DNA of 64,000 nt. Source: Nitrospirales bacterium. Lineage in GTDB: Bacteria; Nitrospirota; Nitrospiria; Nitrospirales; UBA8639. Location: positions 461,253-525,252 of the forward strand of contig OZ242257.1 of NCBI GenBank assembly GCA_965207015.1, in the 5' to 3' direction. The translations under genes were made by a program, and so were the position numbers. Positions 4,302-7,658 of this stretch are shown one piece after another; the stretch's first letter is position 1; each line of letters opens with the position of its first letter. The notes below the pieces were generated by a model. It was not told the DNA's origin. It searched no databases and was given only the letters and a program-made list of their open reading frames with translations.

Positions 4302-5243
4302 ATGAGTCGACAGAAAATCACGATCGTCGGGGCGGGCAACGTCGGAGGATCGGTTGCGCAGAGGCTGGCCGAAAAGAGCGGGTACGACATCGTCCTCGTT
4401 GATATTGTGGAAGGCCTGCCGCAGGGCAAGGCCCTGGACCTGGCGCAGGCCGGCGCGGTGTGCGGCTATGACTCGCCGATTCGCGGCACCGACCGGTATG
4501 ACGATACCACGGATTCCGACGTGGTGGTGGTGACCTCAGGGATTGCCCGGAAACCCGGCATGAGCCGGTCCGAATTACTGGAGACCAACACCAACATCGT
4601 GCGATCCGTGGTCCGGGAAGTGGCTACCCGTTCGCCCGAGGCCGTGCTGGTCATCGTGGCCAATCCGTTGGACGCCATGACGTACGTGGCCTACCGGGTG
4701 AGCGGATTTCCCAAACAGCGCGTCGTGGGCATGGCCGGGATTCTGGACTCCGCCCGGTTCTGCACGTTTATCGCCCAAGAGTTGAACGTCTCGGTTCACA
4801 ACGTCCATGCCATGGTACTGGGAGGACATGGAGACGCGATGGTGCCGCTGATCCGGTATACCACCGTGGCCGGTCGCCCCGTGGATCAATGGATGTCGAA
4901 AGAGCGGCTTGACGCCCTGGTGAAGCGAACGCGCGGCGGCGGCGGGGAGATCGTCAGTCTTCTCAAGACCGGGAGCGCCTACTATGCTCCGGCGGCATCC
5001 GTGGTCGAAATGGTCGAGGCCATTATCCGTGATGAACACAAGGTCCTGCCCTGTGCCGCGTTGTGTGACGGCGAGTACGGCCTGAAAGGGACCTATATGG
5101 GCGTGCCGATCCGATTGGGGAAAACCGGCGTCGAAGAAATTCTCGAATATGATCTGACCCCGGACGAAAAAGCCGCGTTCGAGGAGTCGGCCCAAGGCGT
5201 CAGGGAACTCTGCGAAGAGGTCGATAAAATCCTCGGCTTGTAA
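4302..5243 (+). CDS. mdh: malate dehydrogenase (LDH-like type)
   Basis: [12 protein letters not shown] Rossmann N-terminus. Colinear LDH/MDH family sequence, 313 aa. Confidence 0.95.
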
Positions 5244-5247
5244 CCCG

Positions 5248-5745
5248 CTACTGCAATTTTTCAGCCAGCACCTTTTCCGTTTGTTTCCGGCGGAACTCTT
5301 CCAGGTTTTTCTTGATCCCCGAATCCGACAGGGCCAGGATCGCGGCCGCAAATAAGGCGGCGTTGGCTGATCCGGCTTCACCGATGGCCAGGGTGGCGAC
5401 CGGAATGCCTTTGGGCATTTGGACGATGGAGAGAAGGGAATCGAGGCCTTGGAGCGCTTTGGATTGCATGGGTACGCCCAGAACGGGCAGGGTTGTCTTT
5501 GCCGCAATCACGCCCGGCAGGTGCGCCGCTCCGCCGGCGCCCGCGATCATGACGCGGAGCCCGCGTGACTCGGCCTGGCTCACGTAGTCGAACAGGGCAT
5601 CGGGGGCCCGGTGAGCGGAAATCACGCGACATTCATTGGCAATGCCGAGTTGCGTCAGTGTCTCACTGGCCAGCCGCATGACCTCCCAATCGCTTTTACT
5701 ACCCATAATAATGCCGACTAACGGCGTATCGTTTGCTGAAGCCAC
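5248..5745 (-). CDS. purE: 5-(carboxyamino)imidazole ribonucleotide mutase
   Basis: [14 protein letters not shown] ... [11 protein letters not shown] motifs, 165 aa. Confidence 0.95.
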
Positions 5746-5878
5746 AAGCGTTCCTCCTTAACCGAAATGGGGGCGTTGAAGTGGAAGAGAATTCGTCGAT
5801 GACCGGATGAGAGTGTACTCACTCGTCATTTCATTTACAATCTCATTCTGTGGCCACGCGAAACGTGAAAAGCGGGAC

Positions 5879-6027
5879 ATAGCGGCAGATAGCAAAAACA
5901 TAGCAAATCATAGCAAAAACATAGCAGAATATAGCAATGCATAGCAAAATATAGCACAGAACATAGCAAGACATAGCAGATCATAGCAGCCGATAGCTAA
6001 ATATAAATACATATAGCTCGATAGAGC
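5879..6027. repeat. helically phased ATAGCA repeat array (12 regular and 2-3 degenerate units)
   Basis: ATAGC cores start at 5879, 5889, 5900, 5910, 5921, 5931, 5941, 5951, 5963, 5973, 5983 and 5993, with 10-12 bp spacing. Many are followed by A-tracts. Degenerate copies sit at 6013 and 6021. Confidence 0.85.
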
Positions 6028-6242
6028 GTGAAGTGTCATCTATCGCGATGACGTGAGGGTGCAGCTTGTTGAGAACGAACGCGCCCCACGACCGGGAACA
6101 AATAAGCCAATCGGCGGGATGTGCCGGAGTCTAACTCGTTGACGTGCAAAGGGTTTTGGTTCCCGTGTACGGGAGAACGGCTTGACGGAATCAATTAGAG
6201 CCTGTAAATGTTTCCTCATTCGTTGGTAGGATAATCGTTCTA

Positions 6243-6276
6243 CCTCCCCTTGCCCCTCCTTACAAAGGAGGGGAAT
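6243..6276. repeat. REP-B hairpin repeat (inverted orientation)
   Basis: CCTCCCCTTGCCCCTCCTTACAAAGGAGGGGAAT, related to copies at 9152, 23275, 47667 and 47750. Confidence 0.75.
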
Positions 6277-6344
6277 GCCAACGAAGTCGTGAAACCTATG
6301 CAAGGATGACAGCCTGAGCCGTTGCCCGGATTGAAGCATTTTTT

Positions 6345-7658
6345 ATGACTGACAAATTTCCACTTCGATTACTGGCTCCATTCGATGGAGAGCCCTGGGA
6401 TATTGACGGCTACGTCAAACGCGGTGGGTATGAGGCGTGGCAACAAGTGGTTCGAGACGCCGATCCCAATCGCGTGATAGACGAGTTGAAGCGGGCGGGT
6501 CTGCGGGGCCGGGGCGGAGCCGGATTTCCGACGGGCTTGAAATGGGATAAAGTCGTGCATCATCGGGAGACGGAACGATATTTCGTCTGCAACGCCGGCG
6601 AGCACGAGCCGGGCACCTTCAAGGACCGGTACCTGGTCGAGCATCACCCGCATCAGTTGATTGAAGGCTGTTTAATCGGGGCCTTCACCATCGGCGCGCG
6701 GGAAGCCTACATTTATCTGAACGCCGAATTCCTGGCAGCGCGGGCGAGCCTGGAGAAGGCCTTGGAGCAAGCCAAGGCACGTGGATTCCTCGGCCAAAAC
6801 GTGTTGGGGTCCGGGATGGACCTTGACTTGGAGATCTTCGAGGGGCATGGCAGTTACGTCGCCGGCGAAGAGACCGCGATGCTGGAATCCATGCAGGGCC
6901 GCCCGGCGCAACCCAAGGAAAAGCCGCCGTTTTACCCCACCGAGTTCGGGCTTCACGGAAAACCGACCCTGGTGAACAACGTCGAAACCCTGTCCCACGT
7001 GCCGCACCTGCTGCGCAACGGGGCACAATGGTTTACGGCAGTGGGTACGGAAAAGAGTCCGGGAACCATGTTGTTTTCGTTGAGCGGGGCCGTCAATCGT
7101 CCGGGTGTGTATGAATTGCCGTTGGGGACGCCGTTGCGCCATCTGATCGAAGAATGCGGAGGGGGGATTCCGCATGGCCGCGGGATCAAAGCCATCTTTC
7201 CGGGGGGACCGTCCTTTGCCATGATGGGGCCTGAAGCCTTGGATCTGCCCATGGATTTCGATGCCTTGAAGCAGGCCGGGACCGGGTTGGGGTCGGCCGG
7301 GGTGATTGTCGTGGATGATGCCACCAGCATGGTGACTCAGACCCGCAAGCTCTCGACGTTTTTTCGGGAGGAGAGTTGCGGGCAATGTCCACCCTGCAGG
7401 ATCGGCACGGAGCATCTCGAAGAACTGGTGGCGAAAATCGAGGAGGGGAACGGGACACGGGAAGATCTGGATAAACTCCTGCAGATTTGCGGGTTCGTCA
7501 AAGGCACGGGCTATTGCACGTTGGTGACGGGCGCGGCCGTCCTGGTCCAAAACAGTCTGCGGCTGTTCCGGCACGAATTCGAGGAGCGCGTCGCCACGCG
7601 AGCGTGTCCGCCCGACCGCCACGGAACCGGCGATTGCCGTGGGGTGAGCGATTCCTGA
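6345..7658 (+). CDS. NuoF-like NAD(H)-binding FMN/[4Fe-4S] flavoprotein
   Basis: GLRGRGGAGFPTGLKW (NADH/FMN site) and SCGQCPPCRIGT (N3-type cluster motif), 437 aa. Confidence 0.85.
   Translation: MTDKFPLRLLAPFDGEPWDIDGYVKRGGYEAWQQVVRDADPNRVIDELKRAGLRGRGGAGFPTGLKWDKVVHHRETERYFVCNAGEHEPGTFKDRYLVEHHPHQLIEGCLIGAFTIGAREAYIYLNAEFLAARASLEKALEQAKARGFLGQNVLGSGMDLDLEIFEGHGSYVAGEETAMLESMQGRPAQPKEKPPFYPTEFGLHGKPTLVNNVETLSHVPHLLRNGAQWFTAVGTEKSPGTMLFSLSGAVNRPGVYELPLGTPLRHLIEECGGGIPHGRGIKAIFPGGPSFAMMGPEALDLPMDFDALKQAGTGLGSAGVIVVDDATSMVTQTRKLSTFFREESCGQCPPCRIGTEHLEELVAKIEEGNGTREDLDKLLQICGFVKGTGYCTLVTGAAVLVQNSLRLFRHEFEERVATRACPPDRHGTGDCRGVSDS

Follow-up and report, generated by a model that had tools for sequence, protein, structure and literature searches.

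StbA, a small plasmid-borne helix-turn-helix (HTH) protein of R388 that acts in plasmid segregation and in the control of conjugation, binds 9-bp direct repeats that recur with an 11-bp period (2-bp spacer) in front of the gene that encodes it and in further promoters (10.1101/2022.04.29.490116). In the ParR-parC systems of R1, pSK41 and pB171 and in TubR-tubC, iterons with a period of ~10-12 bp lie upstream of the gene for the binding protein, which coats them cooperatively to form a curved, ring-like or helical nucleoprotein complex and also represses the promoter (for TubR, PMC6009700). Here, we describe a phased array of ATAGCA units in the intergenic region between purE and a nuoF-like gene in a 64,000-bp stretch of Nitrospirales bacterium DNA (contig OZ242257.1, positions 461,253 to 525,252; hereafter the window), nine further arrays in the same genome, and a gene for a 143-residue winged-helix protein that accompanies them. 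Our reading, for which we put the chances at about even, is that the arrays are cooperative, curved nucleoprotein docking platforms for this HARE-type winged-helix protein and that together they form a chromosomal, dispersed system without a motor.

The likeness to StbA and its stbDR repeats lies in the small size and HTH fold of the protein, in direct repeats that place one conserved core per helical turn, and in the absence of a dedicated motor NTPase. The largest StbA array (2 x 5 repeats) also lies upstream of its own autoregulated gene, with more arrays on the same replicon. StbA binding is thought to be one-faced and cooperative (10.1101/2022.04.29.490116), as it would be here. There are also differences. 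The secondary arrays of StbA have 2-5 units and lie in promoters, whereas the ATAGCA arrays are chromosomal, and their secondary copies are as long (10-17 units) as the array at the gene for the 143-residue protein, which we call the founder array, and lie mostly between convergent genes. StbA has a PadR- or homeodomain-like fold, and the 143-residue protein, the presumed binder of the arrays, is unrelated to it in sequence.

TubR is, like the 143-residue protein, a winged-helix protein (PMC6009700). However, in the ParR and TubR systems a gene for a cytomotive partner (ParM or TubZ) is adjacent, there is one site per plasmid or prophage and the role is partition, whereas the ATAGCA system has no adjacent motor gene, 10-25 sites per chromosome and no plasmid or phage homologue that we could find. 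Set against a plasmid-type centromere, the arrays have the direct repeats at helical-turn spacing (10.40 bp, with phase compensation), and an array lies upstream of the candidate binder gene at the founder locus (17 of 17 genomes) but not at purE-nuoF. A gene for ParM, TubZ or ParA is not adjacent, although StbA-type systems likewise have no motor, and instead of a single plasmid- or prophage-borne site there are ten on a 2.35-Mb chromosome. With no motor, no plasmid and many sites per replicon, this is not a plasmid partition centromere. The initial annotation had suggested a cooperative protein-loading site, centromere- or iteron-like, as one of two possible functions; the loading site is the best explanation we have, now with a candidate protein, and the plasmid-type centromere falls away.

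Among chromosomal systems, BldC of Streptomyces acts on direct repeats (PMC5859096). BldC and the winged helices of the Xis and RdfS type (PMC11963761) are small proteins that polymerize head-to-tail on variable direct repeats and bend the DNA, with chromosomal targets at many loci. BldC differs in its MerR-like fold, in its 2-6 repeats located in promoters and in being a developmental regulator; Xis- and RdfS-type proteins are recombination directionality factors that work at attachment sites with an integrase. Neither kind of protein has arrays of such length (10-17 units) dispersed among gene ends.

Phased ATAGCA arrays at purE-nuoF and elsewhere

Twelve ATAGC cores start at positions 5879, 5889, 5900, 5910, 5921, 5931, 5941, 5951, 5963, 5973, 5983 and 5993 of the window, with spacings of 10, 11, 10, 11, 10, 10, 10, 12, 10, 10 and 10 bp, exactly as they had been read in the initial annotation, and a 13th core follows 20 bp further on, at 6013. 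This last core belongs to the decayed units that the annotation had placed after the array (ATAGCT, then a degenerate GATAGAG), and a comparable AT-rich tail is found at the orthologous loci of array-bearing relatives. Tandem Repeats Finder reported periods of 10, 21, 32, 42 and 52 across 5877-6005. The pattern ATAGCA-N4-ATAGCA occurs six times in the window, every time within the array, against an expectation of 0.00 (100 shuffles), and over the array the GC content drops to 36% (57% in the genome) and the AT skew rises to +0.48. The annotation had also stated that nothing coding fits here and that purE and a nuoF-like gene flank the array, with the purE start ~130 bp away. We likewise found no open reading frame (ORF) with family support in the array region, and an Rfam search of 5000-7000 returned no family, the sole match being a chance microRNA at 21 bits against a cut-off of 90. 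Pfam matches identify both flanking genes, and the measured distance from the array start to the purE start codon is 134 bp. The coordinates of these and the other features are collected in the Table.

Arrays from three complete genomes were used to define the common anatomy (55 arrays, 622 units). A typical array has 13 unit slots (median; range 5-19) and covers 131 bp (median). The CATAGCA core is near-invariant, with 1.7-2.2 bits per position and 1.1 bits for the leading C, and the spacer positions, though A-rich, vary almost freely (0.25-0.84 bits). Spacings of 9 bp (98 times), 10 bp (221), 11 bp (262) and 12 bp (41) give a mean period of 10.40 bp. Neighbouring spacings compensate for each other (lag-1 r = -0.50, and -0.51 when only exact cores are counted), and the cumulative phase drift is below that of all 1000 resamplings. 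The helical-turn spacing thus puts all cores on one side of a curved stretch of ~130 bp. That the DNA is intrinsically curved, as proposed in the initial annotation, is supported by a dinucleotide wedge model applied in 130-bp windows, which predicts a bend of ~148 degrees over 130 bp for the purE-nuoF array. For the 55 arrays, the model gives a median bend of 123 degrees in 130 bp, and 98% of them exceed the genomic 99th percentile of 76 degrees; the genomic median is 27 degrees, and that of base-shuffled arrays is 40 degrees. By this model, the arrays have the A-rich tracts in helical phase and the large net bend of phased A-tract curved DNA. Core invariance, phasing and predicted curvature together point to double-stranded DNA that is read on one face.

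Table. Features of the purE-nuoF region (window coordinates), arrays of the genome containing the window (G000) and the candidate binder gene
Feature	Position	Strand	Description and basis
purE (AIR, aminoimidazole ribonucleotide, carboxylase), left flank	5248..5745	-	Pfam PF00731, E = 1.1e-63
Putative purE promoter	5812..5840	-	TTGTAA-N17-TACACT; by eye; 38 bp from first array unit
Regular part of array	5879..5998	+	12 units, core (C)ATAGC(A), 10-12 bp spacing, A-rich spacers between; read from sequence, Tandem Repeats Finder, pattern statistics
Decayed tail of array	5999..6027	+	AT-rich TAAATATAAATACAT, then ATAGCT at 6013, then GATAGAG; read from sequence
Genus-conserved block upstream of nuoF	6141..6210	+	TTGACGTGCAAAGGGTTTTGG ... 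CTTGACGG-N-TGTAAAT
REP-like (repetitive extragenic palindromic) palindrome	6243..6277	.	CCCCTCCTTACAAAGGAGGGG; separate multi-copy repeat family, outside array
NuoF-like gene, right flank	6345..7658	+	Nuo51 FMN (flavin mononucleotide)-binding, SLBB and 4Fe-4S domains; Pfam PF01512, PF10531, PF10589
ATAGCA arrays in G000	33, 259, 467 (purE-nuoF), 964, 981, 1248, 1352, 1595, 1983, 2073 kb (approx.)		
Candidate binder gene, 143 aa	G000:C1:1983425-1983853		Outside window; between outer-membrane protein gene and nadA

We then searched the genome containing the window (G000; a single contig of 2,354,732 bp) for chains of at least five cores at 9-12 bp spacing. This gave exactly ten arrays, all intergenic and among unrelated housekeeping genes, so the search for other ATAGCA arrays that the initial annotation had recommended yielded nine further loci. 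When the ten arrays were compared by blastn together with 800 bp of flank, homology was limited to the array itself, except that two pairs also share ~85-130 bp of flank. Of 38 species genomes of the genus, 18 contain a three-unit pattern; 16 genomes from other genera of the order had none, and the reversed pattern, used as a control, gave zero matches. In a scan of ~186,000 species genomes, the pattern was found mostly in metagenome-assembled genomes (MAGs) named "Nitrospirales bacterium" or "Nitrospira sp. SB06xx_bin"; from these bin names, we take the source Nitrospirales to be an uncultured sponge symbiont.

For 49 arrays, both neighbouring genes could be classified: 22 arrays lie between convergent and 9 between divergent genes, and of those between tandem genes 10 are co-oriented with and 8 opposed to transcription. 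Convergent junctions thus account for 45% of the arrays as against 15% of all gene junctions, three times the expectation. These counts indicate that the arrays favour gene ends and that array direction is unrelated to transcription.

At purE-nuoF itself, 11 of the 28 orthologous intergenic regions have the array, and its units and spacers turn over rapidly. In the other 17, among them those of G004 and G049, two genomes with arrays elsewhere, unrelated sequence of ~110 bp separates the same blocks of conserved sequence. The putative purE promoter block, which a consensus promoter scan did not report, is kept in nearly all 28 regions whether the array is present or absent. The conserved block upstream of nuoF also occurs with and without the array and may be a promoter or operator of nuoF that is independent of it. 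Since it is missing from 17 of the 28 loci, the array at purE-nuoF is an optional insert. Conservation among relatives, which the initial annotation had recommended checking, is partial, and absence of the array from an otherwise intact locus is one of the outcomes that the annotation itself had named as speaking against a locus-specific role. Its suggestion that the bend serves the divergent purE and nuoF promoters is not supported: given the nine other loci, the convergent excess and the 17 array-free orthologues, a dedicated promoter element is unlikely.

Other repeats share this intergenic region. The CCCCTCCTTACAAAGGAGGGG palindrome has dozens of genomic copies by blastn, and its presence varies among orthologous purE-nuoF loci. 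The genome is dense in several families of REP-like palindromes, such as CCCCTCCTTACAAAGGAGGGG- and GTCATTCCCGAC-type units, which are gained and lost between orthologous intergenic regions independently of the ATAGCA arrays. Two more distant species, G048 (L159) and G024 (L161), have another tandem repeat at the position of the array, with a period of ~21-22 bp (GGCGGGAAGGACGGGAGAGAG-like) and 5 to ~15 copies, apparently grown from a REP-like GTCGGGAATGAC unit. The position seems to be a hot-spot for repeat expansion.

REP elements, the bacterial interspersed mosaic elements (BIMEs) built from them and BOX elements resemble the ATAGCA arrays in being multi-copy, intergenic, clade-restricted, enriched at gene 3' ends and convergent junctions, and patchy at orthologous loci. 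They differ in that their units are palindromic hairpins, and REPs are mobilized by RAYT transposases, whereas the arrays are purely direct repeats with a helical-turn period and no hairpin potential. Of the features of REP/BIME elements or miniature inverted-repeat transposable elements, we found multiple intergenic copies and variable presence (ten copies; 11 of 28 orthologous loci) but neither palindromes nor terminal inverted repeats, and the ten copies have no inverted termini in common. A mobile element was rejected because the ten arrays with their 800-bp flanks showed no common termini or target duplications by blastn.

The genes beside the multi-copy arrays of G010 are paralogous surface-protein, autotransporter, TonB-receptor, resistance-nodulation-division (RND) and cytochrome genes rather than transposases. 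In this genome, an array follows each member of a set of five paralogues (L207, L209, L212, L219, L241) whose large secreted or surface products share the C-terminal motif GGFVATR and have no Pfam match; the array lies ~80 bp downstream in four of them and ~240 bp downstream in L219. The ~110-bp leader and array are 83-92% similar between copies, and the genes ~72-79% or undetectably so, which suggests gene conversion or selection on the 3' flank. In G000, the array at G000:C1:1595206-1595308 lies 71 bp downstream of a XerD-type tyrosine recombinase-like gene, and the 2073-kb array ~390 bp downstream of a gene pair resembling a Dcm-type methylase and a Vsr-type endonuclease (both by eye). We saw no consistent link between recombination or modification genes and the arrays.

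The 143-residue protein and its founder array

The 1983-kb array of G000, the founder, lies 38 bp from the start of the divergent ORF that encodes the 143-residue protein. This gene is present in all 15 array-rich genomes of the genus (E <= 1e-61). It is otherwise confined, among the 23 genus genomes in which arrays are few or absent, to G002 and G053 (66-69% identity); G024 retains a 47-aa remnant with a stop codon. In 17 of 17 genomes with a full-length gene, an ATAGCA array is found directly upstream in divergent arrangement. The gene-proximal end of the founder array contains a conserved inverted pair of cores, ATAGC-N5-GCTAT (ATAGCAGCACGCTAT; L246 1445-1462 and orthologues), at which, separately from the direct-repeat body, dimers could nucleate. 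The distal motif of the founder array, ATAGCAATGCGATGTTTG, is found again at some of the dispersed arrays. At the founder locus, scans for promoters and terminators gave no excess above shuffles.

In a tree of nuoF, gene-bearing and gene-free genomes are intermingled within a clade of 23 genomes. G019, which has the gene and 20 pattern matches, is sister to G044 (support 100/99), a complete genome that lacks the 143-aa gene and in which one degenerate array remains as a relic. None of the seven clade members without the gene has more than one array locus, and in G002 and G053 the founder array and one partial duplicate are practically the only arrays. The distribution of gene and arrays on this tree is the pattern expected if the arrays depend on the protein.

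An alignment-based AlphaFold model of the protein (pLDDT 78.7) has an N-terminal helix of 42 residues (4-45), joined by a disordered linker to a C-terminal winged helix composed of three helices (71-82, 88-97, 107-121) and a beta-hairpin wing (strands 125-128 and 131-134) with pLDDT >90, as in the HARE-HTH fold; a single-sequence model was too poor (pLDDT 52) and was not used. Several homologues have a precomputed match to PF05066 (HARE-HTH). A profile search against the PDB gave RNA polymerase delta as the best match (E = 0.015), and the Foldseek matches, including 2krc and 8h1t_K, were all winged helices with E >= 0.05. These weak, generic fold and profile matches comprise BlaI-like Rv1846c, SelB, RNA polymerase delta and the HARE domains of ASXL1. 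The winged-helix part is near-invariant across 18 homologues, which fits the invariance of the core motif. All 67 close homologues are "hypothetical proteins" of sponge-associated Nitrospira MAGs. A profile search recovered 1403 cluster representatives (E <= 1e-3) with the same two-part architecture, none annotated beyond "winged helix". NCBIfam has no family for the 143-residue protein or for nine homologues, and a tblastn search of 72,556 plasmid and 50,697 phage records with the protein gave no match.

From these observations we infer how the pair might work, including binding, cooperativity and cellular role. The 143-residue protein probably coats the ATAGCA arrays. The platform would consist of ~10-17 direct CATAGCA repeats, one helical turn apart, with A-rich spacers between them and the cores on one face. 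Each winged helix would read one core, and the N-terminal helices would join adjacent subunits, so that binding would be cooperative and one face of the array would become coated as a curved or wrapped filament. The founder array, 38-160 bp upstream of the start codon, would then act as an autoregulatory operator of the 143-aa gene, and the dispersed copies, including that at purE-nuoF, would be secondary landing pads. At these, an architectural effect, as a roadblock, an insulator or a pin for supercoil loops at gene ends, is more likely than gene-specific regulation.

A second, distant paralogue with an N-terminal helix and a HARE-HTH domain (G000:170815-171345) was considered as binder and rejected, as it is present in every genus genome, with arrays or without. 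This protein (176 aa; locus G000:C1:170815-172100, outside the window) is also found in most sampled Nitrospirales. One or two small KKAPAKKAA-repeat genes, whose products resemble histone H1-like proteins, lie 3' of its gene, and an AT-rich region with a palindrome lies upstream. This neighbourhood hints that the wider N-terminal-helix/HARE family is nucleoid-associated.

Weighing the alternatives

Several findings weigh against the docking-platform reading. The link between protein and arrays consists of co-occurrence and adjacency in one clade, where related genomes are not independent, judged on a single-gene tree, and the adjacency itself is a single inherited arrangement. G046 has no gene and keeps a fairly intact array of ~10 units. 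Conversely, G002 and G053 have the gene with almost no dispersed arrays, so the protein alone does not maintain many arrays. We found no clean array upstream of the more distant family members P0068 and P0070, and Tandem Repeats Finder, applied to the second paralogue and to distant homologues (21 loci in all), returned coding KKAPA-type repeats only. The Pfam match of the protein to HARE-HTH (PF05066), although it spans model positions 2-71 of 71, is weak (18.7 bits, E = 0.0023, below the cut-off of 25.9), and we know of no established sequence-specific DNA-binding role for HARE-HTH domains in bacteria. The negative correlation of neighbouring spacings may in part reflect amplification of 21-bp double units rather than selection for helical phase, the predicted bends depend on the wedge parameters used, and part of the array expansion in G010 is segmental duplication along with the paralogous surface-protein genes.

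The main rival is that the arrays are a functionless minisatellite, neutral or selfish, with a single origin and no partner. Duplication and recombination would have spread it to permissive intergenic sites, slippage and gene conversion would keep its units alike, and its association with the winged-helix gene would be a coincidence of phylogeny and linkage. The confinement of the family to a subclade of one genus, the fast turnover of unit number and spacers between close species, the spread of some copies together with duplicated genes and flanks, the array-bearing and empty alleles at purE-nuoF and a genome full of other repeat families are all as this rival would have it, as is the threefold excess in convergent regions, where insertions harm least. 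Slippage, however, would homogenize whole units, yet the 622 units, which come from many loci and several species, are invariant in the 7-bp core alone, and a 10.4-bp period with phase compensation is not expected of a neutral satellite. Orthologous arrays also persist between species whose flanks are ~88-90% identical, and array abundance follows the presence of the gene through several apparent independent losses. We consider this explanation unlikely. A promoter element specific to this locus, in which curvature or an operator of the OmpR/PhoB type tunes purE and nuoF transcription, we judge improbable. The array begins 38 bp upstream of the conserved -35-like hexamer of purE, its predicted curvature is strong, and its minus strand contains TTGCTA and TGCTATGAT, which resemble a -35 and an extended -10 element, with one promoter-like match. 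The layout is also reminiscent of the Pho and GlnR boxes of the OmpR/PhoB family, which are direct repeats of 6-7 conserved bases and an A/T-rich spacer with an 11-bp period, here with 7 conserved bases and a period of 10-11 bp. In those boxes, though, a response regulator binds 2-6 units that overlap the -35 element of the promoter under its control, whereas the ATAGCA arrays are much longer, lie mostly outside promoters without -35 overlap (22 of 49 convergent, and no orientation bias relative to transcription) and co-occur with a non-OmpR protein. The nine other copies in unrelated contexts, the even split of tandem arrays, the 17 array-free loci that keep the same putative promoters, and promoter and terminator scans at purE-nuoF that gave no more sites than shuffled sequence do not fit a promoter element either.

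We give still less credence to chromosome signals oriented by replication, comparable to Ter, KOPS or Chi and read directionally by the replication, recombination or segregation machinery. The A-rich strand is the leading strand in nine of the ten G000 arrays, and array orientation is not tied to that of the neighbouring genes. Elsewhere the concordance was 18/25 (G010), 12/20 (G003), 6/9 (G018), 4/7 (G015) and 3/4 (G049), and over seven genomes it fell to ~54 of 77 arrays (70%), still above the 61% for genes. Orthologous arrays were counted repeatedly in these figures, so the effective sample is much smaller; clustering arrays into loci by their flanks merged 24 arrays into one cluster through REP-like flank repeats. 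Moreover, origins and termini were placed from sparsely sampled GC skew, ambiguously in G007. The arrays are evenly spread round the chromosome without clustering at origin or terminus, and known polar signals are single short sites rather than arrays of 10-17 units. The orientation bias is thus modest and unproven. Least probable, and in our view very improbable, is that the arrays act as RNA, with transcribed CAUAGCAA repeats (in a 3' untranslated region or a small RNA) to which an RNA-binding protein, perhaps the winged-helix protein itself, would attach as to a sponge or platform. Like protein-sponge RNAs, the repeats are A-rich and lack structure, many arrays are situated shortly downstream of a gene, and the weak fold matches include winged-helix domains of SelB in complex with RNA. 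A period of 10.4 bp with compensated phase, however, points to B-form DNA, and orientation is unbiased with respect to flanking transcription (10 vs 8). There is no promoter or terminator signal and no Rfam match, and both array strands fold no better than shuffled sequence (z = -0.24 and +1.21).

Implications for the family and its hosts

For purE and nuoF, the array is an optional insert that lies outside the conserved regulation of both genes. Taken more broadly, the docking platforms could represent an undescribed chromosomal, motor-less system in which gene ends are marked by curved pads, each of 10-17 units, dedicated to the landing of a sequence-specific nucleoid-associated protein, a possibility that we put forward tentatively. 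If true, this would be the first function for the large family of small proteins that combine an N-terminal helix, possibly a coiled coil, with a HARE-HTH domain. Natural variation offers a ready comparison for the co-evolution of binder and site among three states: genomes with the gene and 10-25 arrays, genomes with the gene and only its own operator, and genomes that lost the gene and have at most one relic array. If the pairing of protein and arrays holds, it would give a widespread, unannotated family of HARE-type winged helices a concrete and easily tested DNA target, and the iteron-coating strategy of plasmids (StbA, ParR, TubR) would have a dispersed chromosomal counterpart in uncultured nitrite oxidizers that presumably live as sponge symbionts.

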